Shown here one piece after another: positions 11,088 through 46,742 of a DNA stretch of 64,000 nucleotides. The first letter of the stretch is position 1; every line of letters starts with the position of its first letter. Under the pieces are notes generated by a model. That model searched no databases. It was not told the DNA's origin and was given only the letters and a program-made list of their open reading frames with translations. The translations under genes were made by a program, and so were the position numbers. Source of the DNA: Dehalococcoidia bacterium (GTDB lineage: Bacteria > Chloroflexota > Dehalococcoidia > Plut-88900); assembly GCA_965197645.1 (NCBI GenBank), contig OZ240219.1, positions 1,280,001 to 1,344,000 of the forward strand, read 5' to 3'.

Positions 11088-11146
11088 TTCCTAAGGCTGG
11101 CATTACGTCACACTTGGACGATGGAACGGACTGAGAGCAGAGGGTA

Positions 11147-21958: not shown

Positions 21959-23200
21959 TCAGGAGGTTACAGCCGGAGCCCTCTCTCGCTTTCGTTGGGC
22001 CACCGCCGCATCGGCTTTCCCGAAGTCCTTCTCGGTGAACTGGTAGAGGCGAGCGCCGCCGAACAGGATGTCCGCGGCCACCTCCCTGGAGGCGTTGCTC
22101 AGCACGTTGCTGGACACGTTGGGGAAGTTGGAATCGAAGTGCGGATAGTCGGTGGAGACGCACATCCGGTCCGCGCCGATGAGCTGGGCTGTTGGCATGA
22201 TCTCAGGCTCGCTGCCTTCCACTGCAGCCCAGCAGTTGCGTCGGAAGTACTCCTTGGGCGTCATGGACAGGTAGGGAGCGTGGGAGTCTCGATAGTTGGC
22301 GTAGTCCCACTCGATGCGGGTCAATAGGCCGGGCACCCAGGAGTTCTGGGCTTCCAGGTAGCCTACCCGAAGGCGGGGATGAAACTCGAAGACGCCGCCG
22401 ATGATCTGGGCCACCATCGCCTGCTGCATCTCGATCCAATGGCTGGTGACGTGACGGTAGAACCGGTTTTCGCCGTACAGCACGTTCATGTGGGAGTACC
22501 AGGCGCCGGTCCCCTCGTGGAAGCCCCAGGCTACGTCCAGCTCCTCGTGGAGACTGTACAGGGCGTCCCAGTAGTTGGAGTGCCAGTAGTGGCCGTTGAC
22601 CAGGTTGGGCCGGATGAAGGATGCCACCGCGCCCAGCTCGTTTACGCACCGCAGCAGCTCTTTGCAGGCCAGGTTGACGTCGTGCATCGGGAGCATGGCG
22701 GCGAACTTCATCTGGTCGGGGCTGTACTGGCAGAAGTCGTAAATCCAGTTGTTATAGGCCTCGCAGAGGGCCAACGAGATCTGGGAGTCCATGCCGTTGC
22801 GAGCCAGGAGGGCCAAACCGCCGGTGGGGAACAGGACGGCGATGTCGATCCCCTCCATCTCCATGGCCATGACCTGGGCCTCTTCGTTGTAGTCCCGATC
22901 GATGGCGAAGTCCATGCGACCGGTCGCCGCCAGCCGGGATGCTGACAGGGTGTTGGTGGGCGAGCCCATTGTCGGCTCTGACTGGTCTCTGAAGACGGCC
23001 CGCTTGCGGTACTGTTGGAGCTCGACGTCCTGGGTAGTGGGGAGCCCGTCTATGACCCACCCGCCGCGCCGGGGTTTGCCGTCGGAGCCTAGAGCAGTGG
23101 TGATCCTGTCCTTGAATCTCGGGTCCAGGTACCTTTCGAAGAGATCGTGGGGCTCCTGGATGTGCATGTCGCAGTCCACGAATCGGAGTCCGTCCTTCAT
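21959..23200 (-). CDS. Amidohydrolase family 2 protein
   Basis: DCDMHIQEP, AYNNW, FHEG, STDYPHFD. Confidence 0.9.
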   Translation of the reverse strand: MKDGLRFVDCDMHIQEPHDLFERYLDPRFKDRITTALGSDGKPRRGGWVIDGLPTTQDVELQQYRKRAVFRDQSEPTMGSPTNTLSASRLAATGRMDFAIDRDYNEEAQVMAMEMEGIDIAVLFPTGGLALLARNGMDSQISLALCEAYNNWIYDFCQYSPDQMKFAAMLPMHDVNLACKELLRCVNELGAVASFIRPNLVNGHYWHSNYWDALYSLHEELDVAWGFHEGTGAWYSHMNVLYGENRFYRHVTSHWIEMQQAMVAQIIGGVFEFHPRLRVGYLEAQNSWVPGLLTRIEWDYANYRDSHAPYLSMTPKEYFRRNCWAAVEGSEPEIMPTAQLIGADRMCVSTDYPHFDSNFPNVSSNVLSNASREVAADILFGGARLYQFTEKDFGKADAAVAQRKRERAPAVTS

Positions 23201-23234
23201 AACCTTCCCCTTTCAGCTAGCTCCGCCGAAGCGG

Positions 23235-23933
23235 CTACTCTCCCAGGCTATCGAGGGTCTCTCTCGGGCTCATTGCAATACAGGTGAAAATCGGGGTGTC
23301 TCTCAGCGTGTAGCTGCTGGCATCCGACCCGCGAAGCTCCATGACCAGGTCCAAGAAGTCCGAGGGGCTATCGGTCTCGAAGGCCACCACGAACTCCTGG
23401 TCGTCCAGCCCAAAGGAGTAGGCGGTGTTGATCTTGACCGATGGGTACTTGTGCCCCGTCTGGATGTGGGCGTTCATCATGCCCTGGCGGGAGGCCTGAT
23501 CCAGCTGGTACCAGTTGCGGGTCTTGACGAAGGGATAGACGAAGAAATACTTGGAATCGATTGGCTTGACCTTCTTGCGCTTCCCATCCTGGTCAGCGTG
23601 CTTGTGGTTGTCCAGGTAGACGGAGGACCTAGTCATCGCCAGGTAGGAGTGGGGAGTGTCCAAGTGTTTGCCGAAGCTAGTGGACCGGAGGCGGGTGCTG
23701 AACTGCTGTACCTTCTCTAGGCTCTCCGTAGCTTGCCAGATGAGAAAGTCGGTGTCGGCACGCATGCCGACGGTGCTGTAGGTGCGGATCATCATCAGCT
23801 CTGAGAAACTGTCGAGAAACTCCAGGAACTCCTTCTTGCCTCTGGTTTTCTCGCCTGCCCCCCGATTTCGCCAGAGCTTGTCCAGCTTGTAGAAGCTGTA
23901 CTTGACGAACTGCCGCTTGCCGTTTTCGGTCAT
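23235..23933 (-). CDS. chdC: Chlorite dismutase family, probably coproheme decarboxylase
   Basis: YPFVKTRNWY, MMNAHIQTGH, SFGLDDQEFVVAFE. Confidence 0.75.
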   Translation of the reverse strand: MTENGKRQFVKYSFYKLDKLWRNRGAGEKTRGKKEFLEFLDSFSELMMIRTYSTVGMRADTDFLIWQATESLEKVQQFSTRLRSTSFGKHLDTPHSYLAMTRSSVYLDNHKHADQDGKRKKVKPIDSKYFFVYPFVKTRNWYQLDQASRQGMMNAHIQTGHKYPSVKINTAYSFGLDDQEFVVAFETDSPSDFLDLVMELRGSDASSYTLRDTPIFTCIAMSPRETLDSLGE

Positions 23934-24625
23934 CGCCTCTCCTGGGCCGGCTCGGCCTGCTTGCTCGTCGCCACGGACTGGTAGGCCCTGATGGTGGCAA
24001 GCAGCACCTGGTCCATGAAGTTGTTCAGCTGTTTCCAGATGTCCAGGGCCTGCTCCGGGTTGAGGTCACGACCACGGGTGACGTCCGTCGAGATGGAGTC
24101 CAACGAGTTTCGAAAGAACAGGAAGGCCTCGAGGGCGTCGTCCAGGGACATGCCGAAGTTGGCGGCCTGGATCCCGTACTCCTCGCCGATGGACCGGGCC
24201 TCATCGAGGACGTTGGAGCGACGGCGTCTCCGGGCCAGGTAATCGCTTACGAGGACCAGCATCTGGCGTCCCAGGTTCCGCAGCCGGGACTTCTGCTCTT
24301 CGGGCAGCCGCTCTAGCCAGCGCTCAGGCAGGGGATGGCGGCGATGAAGCCGGCGGCGAATGCGGGTCAGGGCGATGTCACTCAGGTTGGAAAGGCCGTT
24401 GGACTCCGAGAGGCTGCCGCTCCGGCTGGTCAACAGGTACAGGTCCTCTTGGGCGAAACGCCGGTGGCCGCCCGATGTGCGGAAGGAGCGGATGGCGGCC
24501 TTATCGGCCCAGTGGCGAAGGGTGCTCTCGTTCACGCCGAGGAGCTTGCTGGCCTTGCCGATGGAGACCCACGTCGTGGGCTGGACCTCTACGGCGCCGT
24601 TGTCATCGGAATCGGGCATTGGCAT
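23930..24625 (-). CDS. MerR/Xis-type HTH regulator with helical (RsbRD_N-like) C-terminal domain
   Basis: SIGKASKLLGVNESTLRHWAD..RTSGGHRRF; ATGA overlap with chdC. Confidence 0.8.
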   Translation of the reverse strand: MPMPDSDDNGAVEVQPTTWVSIGKASKLLGVNESTLRHWADKAAIRSFRTSGGHRRFAQEDLYLLTSRSGSLSESNGLSNLSDIALTRIRRRLHRRHPLPERWLERLPEEQKSRLRNLGRQMLVLVSDYLARRRRRSNVLDEARSIGEEYGIQAANFGMSLDDALEAFLFFRNSLDSISTDVTRGRDLNPEQALDIWKQLNNFMDQVLLATIRAYQSVATSKQAEPAQERR

Positions 24626-24636
24626 CCAAGAAACTG

Positions 24637-24689
24637 TAGATTTACCTAGATTTCACGGCCATTGTAGCGGCTTGGGTATGGGGAGTCAA
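24637..24689 (-). promoter_or_regulatory. Sigma70 promoter TTGACT-17-TACAAT with downstream AAATCTA direct repeats
   Basis: -35 at 24689-24684, -10 at 24666-24661; repeats at 24637-24653 with 10-bp period. Confidence 0.7.
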
Positions 24690-24803
24690 ACGGGGGGTGC
24701 GATGCTACGTTTCGGTTGAGTTTTGCCATAGGCTGGGGTATTGTCAAACTTAGGTGAAAGGTAGCATAGACGGCTGACTTTACCATACAGCAAAGGAGAG
24801 CGC

Positions 24804-25172
24804 ATGAGAATCAGATGGGCCATCGTACTGGCTGTAGTACTGATCCCGCTTGGCTCGACCCTCGCTTGTGAGGAGCCTAAAGCAGCGACTCCGCCGCTGA
24901 GAACATCAGTGGTGGCAATCTACCAGGCGTATCAAGAAAACGAGGCCCGGGCCAACGCCACCTATAAGAACCAGGACCTGCGCCTCAGCTTCCGGGTGGA
25001 CGAGATCGAGGATAAGTACGTGGTCCAAGAGTTGGATGGGTTTCTTACACAGGCGGAGCTGGAGTTCGATCAGGAGGACCTAGTCGAGTTCAACGTCGGC
25101 GATGTGAGCAGCGCCACCTGCAGGCTCAGAGGACTGGACCTGGACATCTGGCTCCGCTTTGACTGCCGATAG
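24804..25172 (+). CDS. OB-fold (tRNA_anti-like) lipoprotein
   Basis: Lipobox TLAC; YQAYQENEARANATYK motif; SD AAGGAG. Confidence 0.7.
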   Translation: MRIRWAIVLAVVLIPLGSTLACEEPKAATPPLRTSVVAIYQAYQENEARANATYKNQDLRLSFRVDEIEDKYVVQELDGFLTQAELEFDQEDLVEFNVGDVSSATCRLRGLDLDIWLRFDCR

Positions 25173-25182
25173 GAGACACCCT

Positions 25183-25374
25183 TTGAGATTAACACCCGAG
25201 CAGATCGACGATTTGAACAAAGACGGACCAGGGGAAACCAAGGTCAAGATTACCGGCATCGACGTGTCGGTCGGTGATCTCACGATGCTTTTGGTCAAAT
25301 TCGTACCGGCGCTGATTCTGGCCAGCATCGTTCTAGCGATTCCAATTGCGGTCATCGTTGCCTTGCTGGCCTAG
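25183..25374 (+). CDS. Small membrane protein
   Basis: AGGAG then TTG; VKITGIDV..LLVKFVPALIL hydrophobic tail. Confidence 0.55.
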   Translation: MRLTPEQIDDLNKDGPGETKVKITGIDVSVGDLTMLLVKFVPALILASIVLAIPIAVIVALLA

Positions 25375-25389
25375 TAAAGGAGGCCCCCT

Positions 25390-25617
25390 GTGGCGGATAT
25401 TTCGGAGCCCATGTACTACGTCAACTTGTACAGTGCCCGTTACGGCACCATCCATGAGGAGGGCTGCCCGCATGAGCACTTCGACCCGACTAACCCGAGT
25501 AACTGGCTAGGCAAGTACGCCACTCGCGGGGCGGCTATCGACGCCGTGTTAGCCCTAGGCCGCCGGCCGTGGGAGAGCAGGTGCTGTATCAAGAACCGCA
25601 CGAATGACGAGGACTAA
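25390..25617 (+). CDS. Small hypothetical protein, possible metal-binding (H-x3-C ... CC)
   Basis: SD AAGGAGG; IHEEGC and SRCC. Confidence 0.6.
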   Translation: MADISEPMYYVNLYSARYGTIHEEGCPHEHFDPTNPSNWLGKYATRGAAIDAVLALGRRPWESRCCIKNRTNDED

Positions 25618-25638
25618 CCCAAACCAGCAAGGAGGGAA

Positions 25639-26007
25639 GTGATGGAATTAGCCAGCAACATCGCCACCATAGTCGCCCCAACGATTGCCCTTATCGCGGT
25701 GATTGTGGGCGGTTTGTTGTGGAGAGGGGAAAGGTCCAAACGCAAAAAGCAGATTCTAGAAACTTTGGAGATGTTGGGCAAGATGCGTGAAGAGAACGAA
25801 TCCATCATTCTCAAGCTCAATAATCCAAAGGTACCACCGGCTCTGATGCCGCAACTTGCTATGTCCATACGGTTGCAATATCTCATCAACCTCTTATTGA
25901 TCCATTTCGTCCACTCACATATGCCGCCCAGCCCGTTGCCTAGATGGCTCAGTACACTAGACCCCCTACCTAACATCATCGTGGAACAGAGTGAACAGGT
26001 GTCATAA
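25639..26007 (+). CDS. Hypothetical membrane-anchored protein
   Basis: SD AAGGAGG; N-terminal TM; more AT-rich than neighbours. Confidence 0.55.
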   Translation: MMELASNIATIVAPTIALIAVIVGGLLWRGERSKRKKQILETLEMLGKMREENESIILKLNNPKVPPALMPQLAMSIRLQYLINLLLIHFVHSHMPPSPLPRWLSTLDPLPNIIVEQSEQVS

Positions 26008-26056
26008 CAGTCTCGCTGAAACACCGTAGCGCCAGCCTTAGCTAAGGCACACCACC

Positions 26057-26161
26057 TCACCCCACTGCCCTCTCCATCACCGCCTTTATGAAGTCGGACT
26101 TGGCCATGGCGTACCCCTCCGGTACGTAGCGATACTTCCTCGTCAGTCCCTTCACCGTCAA
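26057..26161 (-). pseudogene. 3' remnant of a GrpB (UPF0157) family gene
   Basis: KGLTRKYRYVPEGYAMAKSDFIKAVMERA* resembles the GrpB C-terminal helix; rest of gene absent. Confidence 0.5.
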
Positions 26162-26230
26162 GTGTCCGCGTTGCGTATTCCTGCCGCCGTGCCTTACAAT
26201 CCGACCAACATCTCGGAAAGGCCCGCCTCC

Positions 26231-27010
26231 ATGGAGCTGATCGACTACTCGCTCCTCGATATCCAACCCGTTCTGGACATCATGTTCCACCCCAGGCCCG
26301 ACTGGCGGCCCCCTCCACGCGGCGCTTCCGACCATCGATTCCCAGCACCCGACGGCACCAATCTCGCCGGACGCCTCTACGCCTACGACCCTGCTTCGCC
26401 CTCCATCCTCTTCTTTCACGGCAACGGCGAGGTTGCCAGCGACTATGACACCGCCGCCCACCTCTACAACGAGATCGGCACCAACCTCTTCGTCGCCGAC
26501 TTCCGGGGCTACGGCCAAAGCGAAGGCACCCCCACCGTAGCCAGCATGGTCTCGGACAGCCACGCCGTTCTGGACGGTTTCACCAACCTGCTCCAGGAGA
26601 ACGGCTCCACCGGCCCTCTCTTCGTTATGGGACGGTCGTTGGGCGCATACTCCGCCGTCGAGTTGGCGGCGCGGCACCCGACGCGCATCAAAGGGCTCAT
26701 CGCCGAGAGCGGCACGGCCAGCATCGGCCGGGCCCTGAGCTGGTTCGGGCTGGAGGGCGATCCGGCCGTCCAGGAGCTAGCGGCGAAGCACGAGGAGAAG
26801 GTCGGCAACATCACCATACCTCTGCTTATCCTTCACGGCGCCACCGACAATCTGGTCCCCATCTCTCTGGCGGAGGAGCTGTACGAATCGGTAAGCAGCG
26901 CCGATAAGCGATTCGTGAAAATCCCTGGAGCGGGCCACAACGACATCATGATCGTCGGGCTTCGACAGTACTTCACTGCTATTCGAGACTTCATCGCCGA
27001 TAACGGATAG
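26231..27010 (+). CDS. Alpha/beta hydrolase
   Basis: FHGNGE, DFRGYGQS, GRSLG, HGATD, GAGHND. Confidence 0.9.
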   Translation: MELIDYSLLDIQPVLDIMFHPRPDWRPPPRGASDHRFPAPDGTNLAGRLYAYDPASPSILFFHGNGEVASDYDTAAHLYNEIGTNLFVADFRGYGQSEGTPTVASMVSDSHAVLDGFTNLLQENGSTGPLFVMGRSLGAYSAVELAARHPTRIKGLIAESGTASIGRALSWFGLEGDPAVQELAAKHEEKVGNITIPLLILHGATDNLVPISLAEELYESVSSADKRFVKIPGAGHNDIMIVGLRQYFTAIRDFIADNG

Positions 27011-27029
27011 ACCTTCATAGGAGGAGCGC

Positions 27030-27500
27030 ATGGGCATCGAGAACATGGCCATCCTGGACCGCCGCCGCATAGAAGCAGAGGTGCTCGGCCCCATGATCAG
27101 GGCCTTTCAGCAGGAGTTCGGCGAGGCCAAGACCAACGAGATCGCTCGAAAAGTGATCGTGGGGATAGCGCGCGAGCAGGGCAGGCAGATGGCCGAGGAG
27201 CTGGATGCCGACGACCTGCGGGCCTTCGAAGAAGCTTCCGAGCCCTGGGCCCGAGGCGATGCCTTCGATACGGAAGAGCTGGAGAAGTCCCCCAACAGCT
27301 ACGCCTACAACGTGACCCGCTGCCGCTACGCAGAGATGTACAAGGAGATGGGCATCGCCGACCTGGGATTCATCCTGTCCTGCAACCGGGACTTTTCTCA
27401 CTCGGAGGGCTTCAGCAAGAAGATCAAGCTGACCCGCACCCAGACCATCATGCAGGGCGCATCCCACTGCGACTTCCGCTACGCCCGGGCGGAGGAATAG
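27030..27500 (+). CDS. L-2-amino-thiazoline-4-carboxylic acid hydrolase family protein
   Basis: RCRYAEMY, CNRD, RTQTIMQGASHCDFRY. Confidence 0.88.
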   Translation: MGIENMAILDRRRIEAEVLGPMIRAFQQEFGEAKTNEIARKVIVGIAREQGRQMAEELDADDLRAFEEASEPWARGDAFDTEELEKSPNSYAYNVTRCRYAEMYKEMGIADLGFILSCNRDFSHSEGFSKKIKLTRTQTIMQGASHCDFRYARAEE

Positions 27501-27515
27501 TCCGCCGTTACCTCC

Positions 27516-28676
27516 CTACCGTAGCTCTCCCAGCTCCTGCAGCACCCACTGGTTGAAGACCCACACCCCCTCCTCCTGGGGCATGTAGACGTTGTGCTCG
27601 TGTCGCCGGGACCGTATCCCCTGCTGCTGCCACTCGCAGTTGTCCTTGTCCTGCAGGAAGGTGATGTCCCACAGCTCGTAGGCCTGCTTCACGTCGAAGT
27701 CCTCCCGCTCCATCGTCGAGGGTTGGAACAGCCAATCGTAGGTCATCTCTACGCGGGTGGGACTAATCGGCAGCATCTTCATCGAGTTCACGTAGTCCGG
27801 GTGAATGTTCAACGTGAAGTTGGGCCTTATGCCGCCCGACTGGTACGGGTTGTTACGCTCATCCTCGTTGAGGCCCGGAAAGGGAGGCCGGTTGGTAGTG
27901 CCGTCCAGCGTAAAGGTGACCATCCCCGGCGCCAGATCCAACCTGTACTCCGCTCCCGGTCTGCCATCGGGCTCCCAGGCCGGCTCCTCACTGGGCCACA
28001 GCAGCCCCCGACCGTGCAGCGGGACAACTTTGCAGAGTTCAGGGTGGACGTTGGGGCAGTGCATGCACTCGGCGAAGTTCTCGATGATGATCTTCCAGTT
28101 GGCCTCGATCTCCCGCACGACCCGGTGCCCGATCTTCAGGTCCTCCATGCGGTAGTTCGCGAACTGGGCCGGCATGTCGTCCAGGGTGTGAAGCAGGGGC
28201 GGGGCCTCGTTCCCCTGCAGGTTGACGAACACGAACCCTGCCCACTCGTCCACCGCCACGTCGTAGAGACGGTAGTCCCGCATATCGAAGTCGCCAACCT
28301 CCAGCCGGTTGGGCGTGGCGATGAGCCCACCCTCCAGCGAGTAGGTCCAACCGTGATAGGGACACACGATGGCGCCGCCAGCGAAGTTGCCCTGGGCCTC
28401 GGTGCACAGGATGGAACCGCGGTGCCGGCACGTGTTGTGGAAGGCTCGAAGGTTTCCGTCCCTGTTCCTGGTTACGAAGACGGACTGGTCGCCGATCTTG
28501 ACCACCACGTAGTCCCCGACCGTCGCCACCTCTTCGGTGCGGCAGGCGTATATCCACGACCGGTGCCAGAAGGTGTCCAGCTCACGCTGATAGTGGTCCG
28601 GATCGTAGTAGTAGCTGACGGGGATGCTCTTCTCCGTCTTCTCCAGGTACCGGGGTCCCTCTTTAGACGCCTGCAT
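27516..28676 (-). CDS. Rieske ring-hydroxylating oxygenase alpha subunit
   Basis: CRHRG..CPYHGW, NWKIIIENFAECMHCPNVHPEL, QD..CE..QQG. Confidence 0.92.
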   Translation of the reverse strand: MQASKEGPRYLEKTEKSIPVSYYYDPDHYQRELDTFWHRSWIYACRTEEVATVGDYVVVKIGDQSVFVTRNRDGNLRAFHNTCRHRGSILCTEAQGNFAGGAIVCPYHGWTYSLEGGLIATPNRLEVGDFDMRDYRLYDVAVDEWAGFVFVNLQGNEAPPLLHTLDDMPAQFANYRMEDLKIGHRVVREIEANWKIIIENFAECMHCPNVHPELCKVVPLHGRGLLWPSEEPAWEPDGRPGAEYRLDLAPGMVTFTLDGTTNRPPFPGLNEDERNNPYQSGGIRPNFTLNIHPDYVNSMKMLPISPTRVEMTYDWLFQPSTMEREDFDVKQAYELWDITFLQDKDNCEWQQQGIRSRRHEHNVYMPQEEGVWVFNQWVLQELGELR

Positions 28677-28691
28677 CTCTCTCCTCCGGGC

Positions 28692-28818
28692 CTAGGCCCT
28701 CTCGACTGCCGGGACCGCCTCTTCAGCGAAGAGCCGGGCCAGCTCCCTCATATCTTCGAAGGTGACGGCAGCCGTATGCGTCATAATGAAGTACTTGATG
28801 TCCTAGTCGTTCGGCCAG
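28692..28818 (-). pseudogene. 3' remnant of an LLM-class oxidoreductase
   Basis: LAERLG / IKYFIM..RELARLFAEEAVPAV* with one frameshift. Confidence 0.45.
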
Positions 28819-28836
28819 ACTAGGCACTCCTAACCT

Positions 28837-29289
28837 CTATGTCAACTCGGCCAGCCCGGCCAGTACGTCCCGAACGTGCTTCCCGATCATGATTTCGTTG
28901 TGGTACACGCCCTGGATAGTCCCCGCCTTGTCGATGAGGTAGGTGATCCGGGAGACGCCGAGCCCCCACCGACGCCGCACATCGTACATCCTCATTACCC
29001 CGCCATCGGGGTCCGATGCCAGGTGGAAGGGCAGAGAGTACGACTCCCTGAACCTGGCATGGCTCTCTGTGGAGTCGTTGCTCACGCCTACGACAAGCCC
29101 ATCCCTCTTTTCTATGGCCTCATGGGAATCACGGAGGCCGCACACCTCTCTCGTTCAGCCATAGGTAAAGTCCTTGGAGTAGAAGAACAGGACCACCTTC
29201 TTGGAGCCCCGCCAGTCGGACAGGCGGAAGGTCGTGCCATCATCCTGTACAGCCTCGAAGTCGGGCGCTTCAACGCCTACCTTGAGCAT
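28837..29289 (-). CDS. bcp: BCP/PrxQ peroxiredoxin, probable selenoprotein (in-frame TGA at codon 45)
   Basis: MLKVGVEAPDF..VLFFYSKDFTYG-U-TREVC..SRITYLID; SECIS-like hairpin after the TGA. Confidence 0.85.
29116..29139 (-). promoter_or_regulatory. Putative bacterial SECIS hairpin
   Basis: GGCCUC-CGUGAUUCCCAU-GAGGCC beginning at nt 16 after the UGA. Confidence 0.6.
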
Positions 29290-29390
29290 ATCGCTATGAT
29301 ACCACTCGTCCTTGGTTCCGTTGCCCTCCCGCACAGCGACTGCTTATACTCTGGCCTGCACTGGACCAGCCAGTCAGGGAGGAGCCGGGA

Positions 29391-30551
29391 ATGTCATCCG
29401 GAACCGTTGTAGACGCCGACAGCCACATCCTGGAACCCGCGACTCTGTGGCAAGAATACATGGACCCGGACTTCAAAGACCGGGCCATGCGCATCAGCGT
29501 GGATGACGAGGGCCTGGAGTACCTGGACATCGATGGACGGGTAAGCTCCGGATACAATGGCGGAGTGCTGGGCCGCATAGCCGCCATCGAGAAGGGCCGA
29601 GAATGGATGATGGAGCACACCTTGCTCCCCTACGCCGAGGCCGCTAACCTCGCTCCCGGCGCCGCCGACGCCCACGAAAGGATCAAGCACCTCCAGCGGG
29701 AAGGCGTAGACCGGACCTTCCTCTTCCCTTCGCTCGGCCTCGGCTGGGAGTTCGATATGAAGACCCCGCCCTGTCTGCGGCCTACTGCAGGGCCTACAAC
29801 AGGTGGCTAGTGGACTTCTGCAAACCCTACCCGGACCGGCTCGTGCCCATCGCCCACGTTTCCGTGAGAGATGTCGATGAGGGGGTAAAGGAGCTTGAAA
29901 GGGTTGCCGGTGACGGAATGAGGGGCGGCTTCATCAGCCCAGCCCCTGTCAACGGCATCCGCTACGGCCACGATTACTACGATCCCTTCTGGGCCGCCGC
30001 CCAGGACCTGAACATGCCCATAACCCTCCACGTGGCACTCAATCCCCAATACGTAGGCAGTAATTACTACTCCGACGACCCGGGCCTCGCGCCGGAGCTT
30101 TTCGTCGAGAGTATGCCCTTCGGCGACCCATTCATTGGCTTCACCAACCTGATGGCCGAAGGAGTTTTTGAAAAGTTCTCCAACCTGCGGATCGTCATGG
30201 TCGAGATCGGCGCAACGTGGATAGCCCATTGGCTGGACATCCTGGACTTCCGTTCCGGCCGTTTCGACTTCGAGAGCAACCTCAGAATGAAGCCCAGCGA
30301 GTACTTCACACGTCAGTGCTGGATCAGCGCCGAGCCCATCGAGAAGGGCATAGGCGTAGTTGCACAGATCGTCGGCGTGGACAGGTTCACCTGGGGGCTC
30401 CGATTGGCCTCACCCCGAGGGCCACACCGCCCCTGTGCGAAAGGTCAAGGAGAATATCGCCAATCTTCCCGAGGCCGACCAGCGACGGATCCTCGGCGAA
30501 AACGCCCTGGCCCTCTACCGGATGGACATCCCAGCCCCGACCGCCGGATAG
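29391..30551 (+). pseudogene. Amidohydrolase family 2 gene with two frameshifts
   Basis: DADSHILEP..; one base missing near 29761; extra G in GGGGG near 30393 before (W)GSDWPH. Confidence 0.8.
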
Positions 30552-30598
30552 CCAGCCGGCTTGTTATTCCGCCCATTGAAGAAGGGACGGACCGGAAG

Positions 30599-31381
30599 CT
30601 AGGCCCCGCCTGATACTTCGATCGTCGCCCCGGACACGTAGCTGGCCTCGTCGGAGCAGAGGAAGGCCGCCACGGCGGCTACCTCTTCGGCCTTGCCCGG
30701 CCGTCCCAGCGGGATCCCCGCGACTTGCTGCTCCTGCTCCTCGTTCGAAAGGTCGTTGTAACGCTGCGCGACCCTGGCGTTCGACTCAGTGAGAATGAAG
30801 CCGGGCATGATGGCGTTGACGGTGATTCCAAAGGGGCCCAGGTCCTTGGCCAGCTGGTTGGTAAGCCCGACGACTCCGGCCTTGGCCCCGGCATAGGGCA
30901 GCCGTGCCGCCGATGGTCCCCTAGGCCCGAAAGTTCCCTTGGCCGACACCGACGAGAAGTTCACGATGCGGCCGCTGCCCTGGGCCTTCATGTGAGGCGC
31001 CACCGCTCGACAGCACAGGAAGGCGCTCTTGAAGTTTCGGTCGGTCACCTGGTCAAGGAGCTCGTCGGTGACGTCCTCGATGTGGTCAATTCCCACGGTG
31101 CCGCTGCCGCCTGCGTTGTTCACCAGAATGTCCACCCGGCCGAACCGTTTCAGCGCCAGGTCCACCATCTTCGCAACCTGGGCCGAGTCGGTAACGTCGG
31201 TCGCAACGCTGGCCAGGTTCTCTGCGGGAGCGTCGAAATCCAAGACGGCCTTCGCCACCTTGTCACCCTGAACGTCGGAGGCCACGACCATCGCTCCACG
31301 CTCCGCAAGCAGGCTGGCAATCGCCTTCCCGATGCCCTGAGCGGCCCCGGTGACTATGGCGACCTTGCCGTCCAAGCTCAT
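30599..31381 (-). CDS. SDR family oxidoreductase
   Basis: TGAAQGIG, NNAG, YAGAK. Confidence 0.92.
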   Translation of the reverse strand: MSLDGKVAIVTGAAQGIGKAIASLLAERGAMVVASDVQGDKVAKAVLDFDAPAENLASVATDVTDSAQVAKMVDLALKRFGRVDILVNNAGGSGTVGIDHIEDVTDELLDQVTDRNFKSAFLCCRAVAPHMKAQGSGRIVNFSSVSAKGTFGPRGPSAARLPYAGAKAGVVGLTNQLAKDLGPFGITVNAIMPGFILTESNARVAQRYNDLSNEEQEQQVAGIPLGRPGKAEEVAAVAAFLCSDEASYVSGATIEVSGGA

Positions 31382-31390
31382 CTAATGCGC

Positions 31391-32512
31391 TCAGTTGAAG
31401 TTGTAGACCGCCGCCGCATTGCCCCCGACGATCTTCGCCTTCTCGTCCTCGGGTACGCCCTCGAGAATCTCGTCCAGGATCTGCTTGGACCGGGGGAAGG
31501 TGGACTCGGTGTGGGGATAGTCCGAGCCCCACATCAGATTATCGATGCCTATGGCCTCCCGGTCTCTGATCCCCCGTCCGTCTTCCTGAAAGCTCAGGTA
31601 AACGTTACGATGGAAGAAGTCGCTGGGCAGTGCATCCCCTTTGAACCGCTGCCACGAGTCCCCCCTGGGTGCCCGCTGGGTATAGGTGTAGTCCAACATG
31701 TCGATGAAGTAGGGCGCCCACGCCAACTCGTGCTCCACGGACACTACCTTCAGGTCCGGATAGCGCTCGAACACACCGCCGAAGATGATCTGGGCCAGCG
31801 ACATCCGCACCCAGTAATCGATGTTGGCCAGTGCACCGGGGTGCACGTCGGTCGGGTCGGCGAAGTTCTGCCCGGGCCCGGGCCTGCCCGTGGCGATGTG
31901 TAGGCTAAGGGGCATACCCATCTCCTGTGCCGCGGCCCAGAAGGGTTCGTACTCCGGCCTGGAATAGGGCATATCTTCACTGGGGTAGACGGTGATCATC
32001 GCCCCTACCAACCCCGCCTTGCGGTTGCTCTCCAGCTCCCCTACCGCCTCCTCGATGTTGTCCACGTTTATCATGGCAACACCTTTCATCCGGCCGGGAT
32101 AGGCGCCGCAGAACTCTGCCAGCCACTGGTTGTAGGTCTGGCACAGGACCGTCAGGAGCCGGCTATCGGGCACACCGTATATCAGCAGCCCCTCGGTGGG
32201 GTAGATCACCTCCCCGTCGACGCCGTCCATGTCCAGGTCCGGTATCCGGTCATCGGGCAGGTAGCCACCGGCCCTTACGTCGTCCCATCGACCGTACATC
32301 CTCAGGTCCTCGGGGCGGTCAAACCGGACGCCCGCCTGGGTGCCGCTCTGAAAGGAGTTGGTGCGGATGTCGCCGATGTACCACCAGTCGCCCTCCTCCT
32401 CGGATACCACGCGGGGGGCCTGGTCCCTGTACTTAGCCTCTATCCGTTCGGTCCACAGGTCCGGTGGTTCAATGGCATGGGAATCCGATGAAATAATCTT
32501 GTAGCCGGCCAT
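31391..32512 (-). CDS. Amidohydrolase family 2 protein
   Basis: SSDSHAIEP, SLH, WGSDYPHTES. Confidence 0.9.
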   Translation of the reverse strand: MAGYKIISSDSHAIEPPDLWTERIEAKYRDQAPRVVSEEEGDWWYIGDIRTNSFQSGTQAGVRFDRPEDLRMYGRWDDVRAGGYLPDDRIPDLDMDGVDGEVIYPTEGLLIYGVPDSRLLTVLCQTYNQWLAEFCGAYPGRMKGVAMINVDNIEEAVGELESNRKAGLVGAMITVYPSEDMPYSRPEYEPFWAAAQEMGMPLSLHIATGRPGPGQNFADPTDVHPGALANIDYWVRMSLAQIIFGGVFERYPDLKVVSVEHELAWAPYFIDMLDYTYTQRAPRGDSWQRFKGDALPSDFFHRNVYLSFQEDGRGIRDREAIGIDNLMWGSDYPHTESTFPRSKQILDEILEGVPEDEKAKIVGGNAAAVYNFN

Positions 32513-32538
32513 AGCTCTGTCCTCCACACTGGGCGTAG

Positions 32539-33420
32539 TTACAGCCCTAGAATTCTCTCTGCATTGGTCCCCAGCATCCCTTCCTTCTCTTCTTGGGCCA
32601 GTCCGGGGAGCCCCATGACTATATCGACGCTCCGGTCCATATCATACCAGGGAAAATCGGAGCCCAACATCACCCTCTCGGGTCCTATCCCCTTGATGAG
32701 GGCGCCTAGCTGCTCGTAGGTGGGTGCGTTGGTGCCGCCGGTCCACTCCATGATCTCGCAGCAGTCGAAGTAGGCGTGAGGATAGGCCTGGGCCAGCTCC
32801 AGCGTCTCCGTCCACGCTCCACCTCCCAGGTGGGCCAGCACCATGGTCAGGTCCGGGTAGTTCTCCAGCACCGGTGCATAGGCCTTGGGCGTTCCGAAGG
32901 CGTTCCCCGTCCGTTCGGGCCCCGAGTGGGAGATTATCGGAATCCCCAGGTCCTGGCAGGTCTCGTAGGTGGGTGCCATTTTCGGGTCTCCCATCTCGAA
33001 CCCCTGCAACACGGGATGAAGCTTGACCCCTCGGGCCCCGTGGTTCTCGACCATGTCTCGAATGTGGGCCGCCATCTCATCGCCGGGCAGGATGAACGGG
33101 TCTGCGCTTATGTAAGCGATCAAGCCATCGTGGGGTGCCGCCAGATCGCAAGCCCACCTGTTGTAGGCCAATAGCTCCGCCGCCAGGTCCGCCCCCTTCG
33201 TCCGAGACTCGGACCCGAACAGATTGACCACCACGGCCTTGGAGATCCCCGCCTTGTCCATGGCGTCCAGGGCATCTTCCACGTCGCCATCGTACTTGCT
33301 GAACTTCATATCCGATTTCTGGCCGTATTCCCAGATCTCGTAGTTCTCTTTGCCGGAACGGCCCTCCTCCTTGGTAGCGCTGACGTGGATATGGGCATCG
33401 ATCAGGATGGGACTGGCCAC
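32539..33420 (-). CDS. Amidohydrolase family 2 protein
   Basis: IDAHIH, GVKLHP, AHLGG, GSDFP. Confidence 0.9.
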   Translation of the reverse strand: MASPILIDAHIHVSATKEEGRSGKENYEIWEYGQKSDMKFSKYDGDVEDALDAMDKAGISKAVVVNLFGSESRTKGADLAAELLAYNRWACDLAAPHDGLIAYISADPFILPGDEMAAHIRDMVENHGARGVKLHPVLQGFEMGDPKMAPTYETCQDLGIPIISHSGPERTGNAFGTPKAYAPVLENYPDLTMVLAHLGGGAWTETLELAQAYPHAYFDCCEIMEWTGGTNAPTYEQLGALIKGIGPERVMLGSDFPWYDMDRSVDIVMGLPGLAQEEKEGMLGTNAERILGL

Positions 33421-33579
33421 GTTCTCCTCCTTCCGCCCGTAATCGCCGAACCGGTGATCGGTGCATGGGGTGAAACCATACTATCTTGAAGTCGATAATG
33501 TAGCAAGGCGATTGCCACCTTGAACCGGGTCTTTTATACTCGCAAACACTTGGCGACCCAGTCGATGCAGGTGAACGGA

Positions 33580-34356
33580 ATGACTCCGAAGCAGATAGAT
33601 CTCAGCGGCAAGATAGCGGCGGTAACCGGCTCGAGCCGGGGAATCGGTGCAGCCCTAGCCAAGGGACTGGCCGCCTACGGGGCCGTGGTATCGGTGCTCG
33701 ACCTACCCGAGGCGCAGAGCGACGCCCATTCGGTGGTTGCCGAGATCGGCGAGGCCGGAGGCGAGGCCCAGGCCCTGGAGTGCGACGTCCGCTACCCGGA
33801 CTCCATATACAGAGCCATAGCCGCCATCGTAGAAAAGTACGGCCGAATTGACATCATGTGCAACAACGCTGGAGTCGCCATGCGAGAGGAGGCCCTGCAG
33901 CTCACCAGGGAGCAGTGGGACTCGGTACACGACGTCAACCTGCGGGGGGTTTTCTTCGGCTGCCAGGCCGCCGCAAGGGAGATGATCAAGACGGGCGGCG
34001 GCGCGATAGTCAACACCGCCTCGGAGCTGGCCTTCGTCGTCTCTAGGATGGGCGGATCGACCGTCTACAACTCCAGCAAGGGCGGGGTGGTCAACCTCAC
34101 CCGTTCCCTGGCCGTCGAGTGGGCGCCCCACAATATCCGGGTCAACGGCCTTGCTCCCGGTCCCACCCGCACCGATATGATGAAGGGCACCTTGGAAAAG
34201 CCGGGCGGATACGAGGCCGCCATAGATAACGTGCCCATGGGCGATGTCATGGAGCCGGAGGACATGGTCGGCGCGGTGGCCTACCTGGCCAGCGATATGG
34301 CCCGCATGGTCACCGGCCATGTCATTCTCGTTGACGGCGGGCGCTCTCTGATCTGA
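33580..34356 (+). CDS. SDR family oxidoreductase (tandem copy 1)
   Basis: TGSSRGIG, NNAG, YNSSK. Confidence 0.92.
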   Translation: MTPKQIDLSGKIAAVTGSSRGIGAALAKGLAAYGAVVSVLDLPEAQSDAHSVVAEIGEAGGEAQALECDVRYPDSIYRAIAAIVEKYGRIDIMCNNAGVAMREEALQLTREQWDSVHDVNLRGVFFGCQAAAREMIKTGGGAIVNTASELAFVVSRMGGSTVYNSSKGGVVNLTRSLAVEWAPHNIRVNGLAPGPTRTDMMKGTLEKPGGYEAAIDNVPMGDVMEPEDMVGAVAYLASDMARMVTGHVILVDGGRSLI

Positions 34357-34375
34357 TTGAACGGAAGGCGGACTC

Positions 34376-35152
34376 ATGCCTGGCAATCCGATTGACCTCA
34401 GCGGCAAGATAGCGGCGGTAACCGGGTCCAGCCGCGGGATCGGCGCTGCTCTTGCCCGGGGACTCGCTTCCTACGGTGCGGTAGTCAACATCCTCGATCT
34501 TCCCCAGACCCAGGAAGCCGCCCGGGCCGTAGTATCCGAAATCGGAGAGACCGGCGGCGTCGCCCAGGCCCTGGAATGCGATGTCCGGGATCCCGACTCC
34601 ATCTACAGGGCCATCGCCGCCGTGGTGGAGAAGTACGGCCGTATCGACATAATGTGCAACAACGCCGGCATCGGCGAGGGAGACTCCGCCCTGGAGATGA
34701 CTCCCGAGCAATGGGACTCGGTCCAGCACGTCAACCTGCGAGGGGTCTTCTTCGGCTGCCAGGCCGCCGCAAGGGAGATGATCAAGACGGGTGGGGGCGC
34801 GATAGTCAACACCGCCTCGGAGCTGGCCTTTGTGGTGCCCAAGACGGGTATTTCGGCGGTCTACAATGCAAGCAAGGGCGGGGTCGTCCGCTTGACCAAG
34901 TCCCTAGCGGTCGAGTGGGCGCCCCACAACATCCGGGTCAACGGGATTGCTCCGGGCCCCACCCGGACCGATATGCTCATGCCCTCGCTGGAAGACCCGG
35001 AGATATACGACGCTGAGGTCGGCATGGTACCCATGGGCGTCATCATGGAGCCCGGGGACATGGCCGATGCCGTGGCTTATCTCGTCAGCGACCTGGCCCG
35101 GATGGTGACCGGCCACATCGTGGTCATTGATGGCGGTAAATCGCTAATCTAG
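34376..35152 (+). CDS. SDR family oxidoreductase (tandem copy 2)
   Basis: TGSSRGIG, NNAG, YNASK. Confidence 0.92.
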   Translation: MPGNPIDLSGKIAAVTGSSRGIGAALARGLASYGAVVNILDLPQTQEAARAVVSEIGETGGVAQALECDVRDPDSIYRAIAAVVEKYGRIDIMCNNAGIGEGDSALEMTPEQWDSVQHVNLRGVFFGCQAAAREMIKTGGGAIVNTASELAFVVPKTGISAVYNASKGGVVRLTKSLAVEWAPHNIRVNGIAPGPTRTDMLMPSLEDPEIYDAEVGMVPMGVIMEPGDMADAVAYLVSDLARMVTGHIVVIDGGKSLI

Positions 35153-35241
35153 GCCTCGAGGGGTTGTCCTCTTACTGCGGGTGACGGATCCAGAGAATCC
35201 CCCAGATTCCTGGACAGAATCCGAATGACAGAGGCGTATCC

Positions 35242-35336
35242 GGGGAGTCCAGAGGGCTTCCCTCAGGCAGGGGGTATGGGGGATGTGCCCCCAACATACA
35301 AACTAATCATCCTAGGGCGGGTGGGAGGGAAAAGCC
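35242..35336 (-). repeat. Dispersed palindromic element, copy of the 18238 family
   Basis: GGGAGTCCAGAGGG..GGCAGGGGGTATGGGGGATGTGCCCCCAAC is close to the reverse complement of 18236-18291; followed by GGGCGGGTGGGAGGGAAAA. Confidence 0.85.
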
Positions 35337-35428
35337 ACGCGGGGGGGTGGGCAGGCCGGCGAAGAGGATTCCTCGGCGGACTCGGAATGACGGGGGGACG
35401 CCCCTTATTACGGGTGCGGGCGCCCTCT

Positions 35429-36322
35429 TTACTTGTCCACGAAGAACTCGATGCGGAATCCGTCGGGGTCTTCCAGGAAGATGCTGCGTTTCCCCTCGTC
35501 GTCTTCACGCAATGCCGGACTAATGCCGGCCTTTTCCATCTCCGCTTCCGCCCTGTCCAAGTCCTCTTGGCCGGCCATCTCAAAGCTGAACTGGCGCAGC
35601 CCCTCTCCTTGTCCATCATCGACCTGAACGAGGGTCAGGTCCGGCAGCCCCAACGTGCCTCCCAGGACCACCGAGCCATCATCCCCGTTGCTTCCCACTA
35701 TGCTCAGCCCACCAACATCCTCGAAGAAACGGGTCATCATCTCCAGGTCCCGTACCCCGAAGGTTGCCCGCGCTACCCGTTCCGGCTGGAAGATGGCGCC
35801 GTCCACCCGCCGGATCTCAGGACTGACGGGATACATACCCTGGGGATGGGGAGCCGGGTCTCCGGGGTGCCACTCGGAGGTCATGTTGTCGAACCGCTGG
35901 GGGTCCATGACCACACGCCAGTCCGTCATGGCGTCGGCGTAGAACTCGTGGCCGTTGCCCTCGGGGTCGGAGAGGTAAATCCCGTAGGAGATCTGGTGGT
36001 AGGCCATGAAATCTATCTTCACTCCGGCCTCCCGCGCCCTTTCGTAGGCCTCCACCTGTTCCACCTGGTTCTCCAGCTCCCAGCCCAGGTGATTCAGGAC
36101 CGGCTCCTTCTCCATCACCCTGGCCTCGATGAGGGCCACGTCATGGTGAGTGTTGCCGTTGGATAGAAACCCCGCTTTGATATCCGGCTCCCAGCGCACA
36201 TGTTCGATCCCCAGGACCTGGTTGTAGAACTCCACCGAGCTCTGCAGGTTGCTGACGGTCAGGTTCACGTGACCCAGCCGCCGCGGCTTGAACTCGACGT
36301 TTGGGGACTGCTTACTGGTCAT
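35429..36322 (-). CDS. VOC family protein (extradiol dioxygenase-like, two domains)
   Basis: LGHVNL, HHDVAL, LNHLGW, YLSDPEGNGHE. Confidence 0.85.
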   Translation of the reverse strand: MTSKQSPNVEFKPRRLGHVNLTVSNLQSSVEFYNQVLGIEHVRWEPDIKAGFLSNGNTHHDVALIEARVMEKEPVLNHLGWELENQVEQVEAYERAREAGVKIDFMAYHQISYGIYLSDPEGNGHEFYADAMTDWRVVMDPQRFDNMTSEWHPGDPAPHPQGMYPVSPEIRRVDGAIFQPERVARATFGVRDLEMMTRFFEDVGGLSIVGSNGDDGSVVLGGTLGLPDLTLVQVDDGQGEGLRQFSFEMAGQEDLDRAEAEMEKAGISPALREDDEGKRSIFLEDPDGFRIEFFVDK

Positions 36323-36432
36323 GACTTCTCTCCCTCTAGGCTAGTGCTTCTACACGGTGCTGATGACTCTTCCTATCATCCCCTGGCGTTCTTCCTGACC
36401 AGGAAGGGAATCGAAATCGTATTCGACGGACA

Positions 36433-36500
36433 CCCCTTCGGCGGGCTCAGGGCAGGCTCTTGGACTCCCGGCAAAGGGGCGAAGCCCCTCTGTACACCCC
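36433..36500. repeat. REP-like hairpin element
   Basis: CCCTTCG..GCTCAGGGCAGGC then TGGACTCCC..AGGGGCGAAGCCCCT hairpin. Confidence 0.5.
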
Positions 36501-36516
36501 ATCCCGGATATCGCGT

Positions 36517-37656
36517 TTAGCTGTTCTTGAACACCTCGAGGGCGTTCTCCCCCACAACCATGTTCTGGTCATCCTCGGGCAGGAACCCGACCATGTCCTG
36601 CAGCGCTGATCGGGCCTCCAGTCCTATTGATCTAATGTGTGGGAAATCGGAGCCCCACATTACCTGGCTGGCGCCTATCTGGGGGATGGCGTGTTCGGCC
36701 ACGGTATCATCGATGAATCCGTGGAACACTTTGGTCCGCATGTAGTCGCTGGCCTTCATCTCGGTCTGGCCGAGGAAGAGCCGAGGGCCTATGTCTTCGA
36801 TCTGGTCCAGCCGGGCCATGAACCCCGGCACCCACGAAAGCTCGAACTCGCTGGAGACTACTTTCAGACCGGGGAAGCGGTCCAGTATCCCGCCGAAGAT
36901 GAAATCGTCGGCTAGGGTGAGCTGGATCTCGTTGAACATCTCTATCCACAGGCTGGGGTTTTCCGTCCGCTCCTCCTGAGTCTGGATGTTGGCGATGACC
37001 AGGGGATCGAGCTTCCGGCCGGTGAGGAGATGCAGGGTGACGGGGGCTTTCGCCTCGTTGGCGGCGGCCCAGAACGGATCGTAGATCGAGTTGCGATAGT
37101 GGGGCCGGTCGTCGGGCGCCTGGCAGTTGATCATCGGGCCGACGAGTCCCTTCTTGAGAGTCCTCTCCAACTCCTTTACCGCCCAATCGACGTCGTACAT
37201 CGGTATAACGCTGATGGGGATTAGCCTGTCCGGAGCGTGGGAGGCGAACTCGGCAACCCAGTCGTTGTAGACCTCGGAGCACCGCTGCACCACCTCGGTG
37301 TCCGGGTTCTTGAGGACCCCCAGCATGGTGGTGGGATTCATGACCTCGGCCTGGAGGCCGGCCTCCATCTGAAACTGCACCCTGACCGCCGGGTCCCAAC
37401 CGCCGTCCCCAAACCCTTTCTCCACCGCTTCCATGGCGGCGGCCTCGGTATCGGGGCTGTCCTCGTAGGACTCCCATACCGGCCAGTCCTTGTATCCCGA
37501 GTAGTAGAAGTTGCCCTTCTTACCCTGGTACTCGTCCAGCGATCGAGGCGTCCGGTCGCCCAGCTCATCTCCCAGGGCGTTCCACCACAGGTCCGGGGGC
37601 TCCATCACGTGGGAGTCCGCCGAAACTACCTGCTTGAACTGCTGCGAGTTTGCCAT
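36517..37656 (-). CDS. Amidohydrolase family 2 protein
   Basis: SADSHVMEP, YDPFW, WGSDFPH. Confidence 0.9.
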   Translation of the reverse strand: MANSQQFKQVVSADSHVMEPPDLWWNALGDELGDRTPRSLDEYQGKKGNFYYSGYKDWPVWESYEDSPDTEAAAMEAVEKGFGDGGWDPAVRVQFQMEAGLQAEVMNPTTMLGVLKNPDTEVVQRCSEVYNDWVAEFASHAPDRLIPISVIPMYDVDWAVKELERTLKKGLVGPMINCQAPDDRPHYRNSIYDPFWAAANEAKAPVTLHLLTGRKLDPLVIANIQTQEERTENPSLWIEMFNEIQLTLADDFIFGGILDRFPGLKVVSSEFELSWVPGFMARLDQIEDIGPRLFLGQTEMKASDYMRTKVFHGFIDDTVAEHAIPQIGASQVMWGSDFPHIRSIGLEARSALQDMVGFLPEDDQNMVVGENALEVFKNS

Positions 37657-37715
37657 CTCACCCCTCCCTTTCTATTCAATCCATGCCGCACGTATGCATC
37701 AAGCCGTTACTACAG

Positions 37716-39005: not shown

Positions 39006-39017
39006 TGGCCGGGACTG

Positions 39018-39878
39018 TTACCAGCCCATCAGCTCGAAGGGGCGATTGTAGAGTATGTCGTTGATGATCTCGTCGGGGATGGGAGGCATCTTCACACCGT
39101 CGCCCCAGTCGTTGAAGTTGACGAACGCGTCCCGCGCTTCCTCCGTGGTAATCACCGGAAAATCGGAGCCGAACAGGATGCGGTCTTGCACCTTGTACTC
39201 TATCGCCACCTGGAGGCCGTTGTAGAGCTGCCACTTTCGATGGAGCCTGGCGGACAGGTCTGTCCAGATGTTCTTGTTCTTGCGCATCAGCATCACCGTC
39301 TCCTCCATCATCGGCTGGCCGAAGTGGGCAACGATGATCCTGAGATCGGGATAGGTCCGCCCCACCTTGTCCAGCGTTAGCGGATTTCCCCACTCCAGCG
39401 TGGCGCTGGGCGGGTAAGCGCCGCCCATGTGGAACATCACCACGCCGTTCAGCTCGTTGACCTTCTCGTAGAGGGCCCAGGCCTTGGGGTCCCACGGATC
39501 GAAGCCCTGGTAAACCGGCGACAGCTTCAAGCCGTGCAGACCCAGGTCCGTCATGCTCCTCTCCACCTCCTCGACGGCCCCTTCGTCGTTGGGGTGTACA
39601 CAACAGAGGCCCCTGGCCCGTCCAGGGTACTGGGAGATGTACTCCGATACGAAATCGTTGTTCCGTACGCGCTGTTCTCTCGTGCCGACGCCTGACGGCG
39701 GGGCGATGAGTAGGAACTTCTGGGCCACGCCGGCCACCTTCTCGCGATAGCCCTCGGGGCCGCCGCCCTCCGTGTTTCGTACGCCGTGTTTCTTCATCTC
39801 CTCCTTGGCGGCCTCCGAGACGGTCTCGGGAGCGAAGCAGTGGGTGTGCCAGTCTATCAGTGTGTTATCCGTCGTCAT
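39018..39878 (-). CDS. Amidohydrolase family 2 protein
   Basis: IDWHTH, GLKLSPVYQ, AHFGQP, FGSDFP. Confidence 0.9.
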   Translation of the reverse strand: MTTDNTLIDWHTHCFAPETVSEAAKEEMKKHGVRNTEGGGPEGYREKVAGVAQKFLLIAPPSGVGTREQRVRNNDFVSEYISQYPGRARGLCCVHPNDEGAVEEVERSMTDLGLHGLKLSPVYQGFDPWDPKAWALYEKVNELNGVVMFHMGGAYPPSATLEWGNPLTLDKVGRTYPDLRIIVAHFGQPMMEETVMLMRKNKNIWTDLSARLHRKWQLYNGLQVAIEYKVQDRILFGSDFPVITTEEARDAFVNFNDWGDGVKMPPIPDEIINDILYNRPFELMGW

Positions 39879-40032
39879 GGTATGTCCTCCCCGGTGTGGT
39901 AGATGGATAGCGGTCTGCAATGCGTGGTGGGAACTGTAGTTATTTAACTACTCCATTTCAGATTCAATGTCAACAAGGGCTTCACCTATAATGGGCCTGC
40001 ATCATCTATCCTTCCTCTGGCCGGGGGGGTCA

Positions 40033-46667: not shown

Positions 46668-46742
46668 TCCCCGATAGCTCAATGGTAGAGCGAGCGGCTG
46701 TTAACCGCTAGGTTTCAGGTTCGAGTCCTGATCGGGGAGCCA
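46668..46742 (+). tRNA. tRNA-Asn (GTT)
   Basis: TCCCCGA/TCGGGGA acceptor stem, AGCGG-CTGTTAA-CCGCT anticodon arm, GGTTCGAG T-loop, CCA end. Confidence 0.98.

Follow-up and report, generated by a model that had tools for sequence, protein, structure and literature searches.

When a stop codon stands in frame at the catalytic position of an otherwise complete enzyme gene, is the gene broken, or is the codon read as an amino acid? The question is raised by a locus in a 64-kb stretch of contig OZ240219.1 (hereafter the window), which is part of the ~3.2-Mb genome of a Dehalococcoidia bacterium. On the minus strand, positions 28837..29289 hold a coding sequence for a BCP/PrxQ-type peroxiredoxin of 150 aa if one TGA is read through, an assignment that draws on translation, Pfam, the structure 3drn_A and GC3. 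Read directly from the sequence, the frame opens with ATG (29289-29287) and closes with TAG (28839-28837). The TGA (29157-29155) is codon 45, at the peroxidatic position, and is proposed here, from the homologue alignment and the ends of orthologue fragments, to be a selenocysteine (Sec) codon. The read-through product runs ...VVLFFYSKDFTYG-U-TREVCGLRD...SRITYLIDKAG... over 150 residues with this one TGA. Under translation table 11, the list of open reading frames (ORFs) contains the gene solely as two pieces, a 59-aa head terminating ...FTYG and a 102-aa tail (28837..29145) with a GTG start four codons past the TGA. The preliminary description of this locus had read 150 aa from ATG 29289 and had remarked that the ORF track gives the last 102 aa alone; both statements are borne out, respectively by translation and by the table-11 listing, and every sequence feature that it named lies where it had been placed. 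The observation itself, a TGA at the peroxidatic codon inside an intact BCP frame, is confirmed.

The family to which the read-through protein belongs is well defined. Its residues 4-126 match the Pfam AhpC-TSA domain (PF00578; E=5e-36, 123.8 bits vs a cutoff of 26) over profile positions 1-122 of 124, in a match that runs across the TGA, and the closest solved structure, 3drn_A (E=3.8e-33), aligns with residues 1-148. The best NCBIfam models are PrxQ and BCP-type thiol peroxidase, with scores below the equivalog cutoffs (NF053650, 90.5 vs 260; NF006960, 88 vs 140), which makes the protein a relative within the PrxQ/BCP subfamily but no equivalog of the enzymes behind these models. A first protein search gave 304 matches in 378 candidates, 120 of them listed; leaving out the window's own entry and three truncated forms, these 120 supplied an alignment of 116 full-length homologues, to which the following column counts refer. 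The TGA column holds Cys in 115 of 116 and Ala in one, which agrees with the earlier placement of the TGA exactly at the Cys of PxxxTxxC. Thr42 of the TxxU motif (ACC, 29166-29164) falls in a column that is T in 110 homologues and S in the other 6. The resolving Cys, which had been located five residues on, is Cys50 (TGC, 29142-29140), a position occupied by Cys in 110/116, and the catalytic Arg of SRITY, described as intact, is Arg114 (CGG, 28950-28948), a conserved active-site residue that shows no variation among the 116 homologues or among the 4/4 members of the window protein's clade that span it. The one caveat that had been raised, Ser in place of the motif Pro, is real and ordinary: the column reads P 89, S 26 and T 1, and Ser is a common, tolerated natural variant, occurring in 26/116 homologues.

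The stop is not peculiar to this assembly: the window protein is accompanied by close relatives with the same interruption. These orthologues are known here solely as predicted proteins, and the interruption is read from the ends of the fragments. Among the 120 matches listed, four are short forms, all on contigs that differ in length (P0002, P0007, P0013, P0017). The first of these, P0002, is the window's own 102-aa tail and represents a cluster with 3 members. P0007 and P0013, both 102 aa and respectively 80% and 69% identical to the window protein, share an identical Val-to-Met start at the TGA position plus four codons, while P0017 (82 aa, 80% identical) begins 20 residues further on than these two. 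A comparison of residues 1-44 with shorter proteins yielded a sole candidate, P0122, on yet another contig; this protein of 71 aa is 89% identical and its C-terminal end, ...VVLFFYLKDFTLG (...DFTLG), lies one residue ahead of the TGA position. The interruption therefore recurs at one and the same position in orthologues that have diverged, on at least four other contigs (P0122, P0007, P0013, P0017). Among the matches listed, no full-length form more than 58% identical was found, and the closest full-length forms, at 55-58% identity, read ...FT[RPA]GCT... with Cys. Homologues accordingly alternate between stop and Cys at this codon, a pattern that the preliminary description had proposed to look for: in the predicted proteins, the stop is confined to close homologues, and Cys is found in those at or below 58% identity. 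The best 150 of 12,545 representative matches (E<=0.001) contained no form starting near residue 46-50 and added no further stop-bearing lineage, and a search of genome contigs with the clade alignment matched 54 stretches, one of which encodes a relative, a BCP from Biostraticola tofi with 28% identity.

In a maximum-likelihood tree of 58 rows, from which P0122 was left out because it has no overlap with the tails, the four rows with the stop group together in a single clade (SH-aLRT 96), which adjoins a group of Cys forms (SH-aLRT 95) and is nested among Cys forms. A single change is enough to explain the distribution of the stop and Cys states on this tree, and 0/500 label shuffles required as few. 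Within the stop-bearing clade, P0007 has Gly at the Cys50 position, where 110/116 homologues have the resolving Cys; this member would have to act as a 1-Cys (here 1-Sec) peroxiredoxin.

A stop inherited from a common ancestor also invites the reading of a pseudogene, i.e. a nonsense mutation from Cys to stop in the ancestor of this small clade, of which the remains have not yet decayed. It draws on three circumstances: Sec machinery was not seen in the 64-kb window, the hairpin downstream of the TGA is not separable from chance, and the adjoining amidohydrolase gene carries two frameshifts, which means that decayed genes may exist nearby. Yet protein sequences within the clade are up to 31% different, and the four other fragments have no extra stop or frameshift. 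Their substitutions are informative as well. We called a column conserved if a residue is shared by >=80% of the 116 Cys forms and variable if agreement is <50%, and dropped one start-codon artefact per sequence before counting. Relative to the window protein, the three tails P0007, P0013 and P0017 differ at 2/21, 1/21 and 0/16 conserved columns and at 14/55, 23/55 and 10/46 variable columns, respectively; pooled, 3/58 conserved and 47/156 variable columns are changed (Fisher p=4.6e-5; per tail, p=0.0019 for P0013 and p=0.21 for P0007), the pooled and single p-values both being rough, as the rows share ancestry and are not independent. On the other side of the TGA, P0122 differs at 0/15 conserved and 2/19 variable columns. 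GC3 is 0.80 ahead of the TGA and 0.79 after it, like that of other genes in the window, and 0.55 upstream of the ATG. The comparison shows a protein that is, to judge from these alignments, under purifying selection on both sides of the TGA, because changes fall mostly at family-variable positions (47/156 vs 3/58). A pseudogene inherited over such divergence would not be expected to retain conserved positions in this way together with a coding-level GC3 on both sides of the TGA. Moreover, the stop sits at the one residue for which Sec substitution is known in the family, according to the tables of PMC1088965. We consider an inherited pseudogene improbable.

Selection of this kind would suit any productive read-through, and the amino acid inserted might then be another one, such as Cys or Trp, delivered by near-cognate or suppressor decoding and giving a sulfur enzyme or an inactive one. 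That neither a canonical SECIS nor, in the 64-kb window, Sec machinery was demonstrated speaks for decoding of this type. We collected the pairs of ORFs in the window that are joined by a TGA, with at least 25 codons on each side and at least 110 in total, and obtained 81 pairs, 9 of which gave read-through products with a Pfam match at E<=1e-5. A domain crosses the TGA in 1/81 candidates, the peroxiredoxin alone, and the 80 remaining pairs of the window include no other selenoprotein gene, as judged by a Pfam domain across the TGA. Among 46 long ORFs, chosen greedily, TGA is the terminal codon of 16. A changed genetic code is therefore excluded, TGA being an ordinary stop (16/46) with a single domain-spanning case (1/81), and general reassignment of TGA was rejected on these counts. 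The same numbers weigh against read-through without Sec, for TGA is a normal stop and no other candidate shows read-through; in addition, a plain TGC would give Cys at no cost, Sec at the TxxU of peroxiredoxins is documented many times in the tables of PMC1088965 and PMC2398784, and Sec users occur among Chloroflexi (PMC1794560 Table 2). Read-through that inserts an amino acid other than Sec is in our judgement very improbable.

In bacteria the insertion of Sec would call for an mRNA structure just downstream of the UGA, and a candidate SECIS hairpin can be drawn at 29116..29139 (minus strand), beginning 16 nt after the UGA, with the arms GGCCUC (29139-29134) and GAGGCC (29121-29116). As a plain 6-bp stem it has a folding energy of -10.1 kcal/mol and a 12-nt loop, CGUGAUUCCCAU, with G in second place. 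The minimum-energy form adds three pairs and a bulged C, closes on a 5-nt loop (AUUCC) and reaches -12.9 kcal/mol with a spacing of 25 nt. When the sequence right after the UGA is included, an alternative hairpin that uses the same GGCCUC is preferred, and the 71-nt stretch is not unusually stable (z=+0.61; 140/200 shuffles equally stable). When the first 12-18 nt past the UGA, which would lie inside the ribosome, are omitted, the GGCCUC/GAGGCC stem reappears in its extended form. The outer pair of the stem draws on a Gly codon of the window gene, and P0013 has Ser in place of this Gly. The bSECIS model given in Fig. 2 of PMC13188914 has a loop of 3-9 nt, an upper stem of 4-16 bp, a G within the first two positions of the loop, a spacing of 16-37 nt and a minimum free energy of at most -7.5, and the same 2026 review mentions that some genuine bacterial SECIS elements deviate from it. 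Each reading of the hairpin satisfies 3/4 bSECIS constraints, the 6-bp reading missing the loop size (12 nt vs 3-9) and the extended reading missing the loop G; no contiguous-stem hairpin with 4/4 was found downstream of the UGA. The preliminary description had seen a stem at 16 nt with a G-led loop, in a geometry consistent with bacterial SECIS elements. The stem and its distance stand, as do three of the four constraints; the G-led loop holds only approximately, G being second in one reading and absent from the other (AUUCC), and the geometry fails in loop size or loop G according to the reading.

How often would such a structure arise by chance? In controls drawn from the 44 presumed genes of the window, an equally good contiguous-stem hairpin (with a relaxed loop limit) follows 452/12,948 in-frame codons (3.5%) and 4/120 Cys codons, and a 36-nt window at -12.9 or better follows 959/12,948 codons (7.4%). 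The 51-nt downstream window lies at the median, with 2,172/4,329 coding controls folding equally well, and 4/4 bSECIS constraints are met by chance in 1,483/4,329 controls (34%). The tight 36-nt fold stands out against shuffles (z=-2.77), in a window that was picked after the stem had been seen. A SECIS could have such a hairpin, which is mildly above average and weakly better than chance; it is no evidence on its own and is indistinguishable from ordinary coding-sequence structure. A scan of positions 28600-29500 against Rfam at E<=10 gave a sole match, Pyrobac-1, at chance level (15.3 bits vs a cutoff of 40). It is conceivable, and to us unlikely, that Sec is inserted through a non-consensus element, either the bulged 9-bp stem with its AUUCC loop or the 6-bp stem with the 12-nt loop; if true, both the class of SECIS and the specificity of SelB would be distinct, and the peroxiredoxin might be among very few selenoproteins in oxygen-respiring, marine-type Chloroflexota.

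From the reading of the TGA as Sec we infer that the host organism decodes Sec. Within the 64-kb window, ARAGORN and Rfam found no tRNA-Sec, the sole RNA match (ARAGORN; Rfam at the gathering threshold) being a tRNA-Asn, and 0/64 ORFs have SelA, SelB or SelD domains. This absence says little and carries little weight, because the window is 64 kb of a contig of 3,211,320 bases in a genome of ~3.2 Mb. Table 2 of Zhang et al. 2006 (PMC1794560) gives 3 selenoproteins in 3 families for Chloroflexi, PMC5029168 describes Sec users as aerobic about as often as anaerobic, and in the literature searched SAR202 and selenocysteine occur together in three papers, in no case in the title or abstract.

The organism itself respires oxygen, because the window holds a caa3-type oxidase operon with its assembly genes in addition to a catabolic and Rieske oxygenase gene set. 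The caa3-type cytochrome c oxidase cluster (5520-13758) is complete, with CtaG, subunits IV, III and I, a fusion of subunit II with cytochrome c, CtaA, heme O synthase (UbiA family) and SCO1/SenC, and it marks the organism as an oxygen-respiring representative of a class whose better-known members are anaerobes. COX1 of the window has 99%-identical copies on two further large contigs, and its named relatives (3 of 120 matches listed) are from Dehalococcoidia bacterium at 82%, 65% and 66% identity. The peroxiredoxin gene lies in a dense catabolic neighbourhood (21959-39920), where six Amidohydro_2 paralogues (one frameshifted) alternate with genes for four short-chain dehydrogenases, two enoyl-CoA hydratases, one acyl-CoA ligase and one Rieske ring-hydroxylating oxygenase. 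Further along, beyond a tRNA-Asn gene (46668-46742) and up to 64000, the GC content drops from ~0.60 to 0.55-0.58. Gene content is different here: this part encodes a restriction endonuclease of the Mrr type (53314-54147) and a DEAD-box helicase of 1,856 aa that carries an MrfA Zn-binding domain (54529-60099), besides two large ORFs (60077-61360 and 61153-63966) for which Pfam gave no match, and the whole of 46668-64000 looks like a defence-type gene island that may have been inserted at the tRNA-Asn.

The frameshifted paralogue is the divergent Amidohydro_2 gene that adjoins the peroxiredoxin (29379-30521, plus strand). Compared with three paralogues in the window, it is split into three frame segments (about 29379-29741, 29762-30397 and 30396-30521), the first frameshift lying at a CCCC run (about 29755) and the second at a GGGGG run (about 30393), and it is either a decaying gene or the product of homopolymer indel errors in a long-read assembly; two frameshifts next door mean that either the region or the assembly is not flawless. 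These possible long-read errors at C4 and G5 runs are what speaks for a TGC or TGT miscalled as TGA in the peroxiredoxin, a hardly credible alternative which we regard as effectively refuted because independent contigs show the same interruption, with at least four other contigs carrying it in their predicted proteins and the window's 102-aa form representing a cluster of 3 sequences, and the neighbour's defects are homopolymer indels, not substitutions. Two other features were noted in the flanks. An inverted repeat (CCTAGTC / GACTAGG, 9-nt loop; 28802-28824, minus strand) lies 13 nt past the peroxiredoxin stop and precedes the Rieske oxygenase gene (27516-28676); it has no T-run, and the terminator scan was negative. 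On the plus strand, opposite the peroxiredoxin gene, runs a 178-aa ORF (28876-29412) with a GC3 of 0.60 vs ~0.8 in real genes, which we took for a shadow ORF.

At the 5' end of the peroxiredoxin gene, ATG 29289 is favoured over an upstream GTG (29334) because alignment column 1 is Met in 88% and column 2 is Leu in 90% of the homologues among the matches listed. An extended -10-like motif, TGGTATCAT, can be read at 29296..29304 (minus strand). It ends 7 nt ahead of ATG 29289, and nothing like a Shine-Dalgarno run lies between the two. P0122 has W-Y-H right ahead of its Met, which implies the same TGGTAYCAY, and similarity is lost further upstream; the retention of W-Y-H next to unrelated upstream sequence fits a conserved promoter element better than coding sequence. 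A two-hexamer sigma-70 scan gave no minus-strand promoter. It is plausible, on these grounds, that the peroxiredoxin transcript is leaderless.

The stop most likely encodes Sec because it stands at the position of the catalytic Cys and recurs in related organisms. We put the probability at roughly 80% that this is an intact gene for a Sec-containing BCP/PrxQ peroxiredoxin that is missed by ordinary gene calling. This had been the central proposal for the locus, a real peroxiredoxin whose peroxidatic codon is a recoded UGA, and it is supported by the recurrent stop, its confinement to one clade, GC3 and the conserved residues. In the mechanism that we propose, UGA45 would be decoded by Sec-tRNA(Sec), delivered by SelB on an mRNA structure just downstream, for which the best binding candidate would be the hairpin at 29139-29116, just outside the ribosome when the UGA is in the A site. 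The selenolate of Sec45, positioned by Thr42 and Arg114, would reduce peroxide, and the resulting selenenic acid would be resolved by Cys50 to an intramolecular selenenylsulfide, which may then be reduced by thioredoxin. The change from Cys to Sec would have had a single origin, within a small group of aerobic bacteria that resemble Dehalococcoidia.

Read in this manner, the locus bears on how such genomes are annotated. The lineage seems to lack a peroxide-detoxifying enzyme, or to have a broken copy, because standard gene callers split the gene; the correct reading gives back a complete gene for an antioxidant enzyme. On this reading the lineage is also a probable user of selenium, which matters for the trace elements that it needs as well as for genome annotation. 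The clade would represent a clean, recent switch from Cys to Sec with one member minus the resolving Cys, and could for this reason be used to compare catalysis by Sec with that by Cys on a BCP scaffold.

Peroxiredoxins with Sec are an established group, and no new principle is involved here, because catalogues of Sec-containing TxxU peroxiredoxins go back to 2001-2008. COG1225, under which some of them are filed, we take to be the Bcp group. Tables 1 and 3 of PMC1088965 list 43 Sec-Prx (TxxU) genes from the Sargasso Sea set under COG1225, Table 2 of PMC2398784 has 253 from the GOS set under pfam00578, a table in PMC5029168 has 91 genes across 78 sequenced bacteria, and five independent conversions from Cys to Sec are inferred in Table 1 of PMC1794560. 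The window gene shares with this family of Zhang and Gladyshev the AhpC/TSA (PF00578) domain, the (here proposed) Sec at the peroxidatic position of TxxU and the widespread Cys homologues; it differs in that it is placed by motif and domain alone and in that its hairpin departs in part from the consensus bSECIS. PrxU of Eubacterium acidaminophilum, cited by PMC13188914 as an experimentally supported Sec-Prx, likewise has Sec as the peroxidatic residue and is thioredoxin-dependent, whereas the window protein is shorter and belongs to another peroxiredoxin subfamily, scoring 63.8 bits vs a cutoff of 270 with the PrxU model NF040737 (profile positions 35-186 of 233). Cys-type BCP/PrxQ proteins, e.g. 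3drn_A (a bacterioferritin comigratory protein homologue), are of the same sequence family and length and have the same layout of Thr-x-x-peroxidatic residue, resolving Cys five on and conserved Arg, but their peroxidatic codon is TGC/TGT where the window gene has TGA, and the nearest of them are 55-58% identical. The window clade is without selenoprotein annotation in the collections searched, as no full-length form more than 58% identical occurs among the matches listed. What distinguishes the window gene is its small aerobic Dehalococcoidia-like clade, the distance to its Cys relatives (55-58%), the Gly of P0007 and the off-consensus downstream structure; with these traits, it is best explained, from the comparison of sequences, as an unannotated further member of the established family of Sec-containing TxxU peroxiredoxins.
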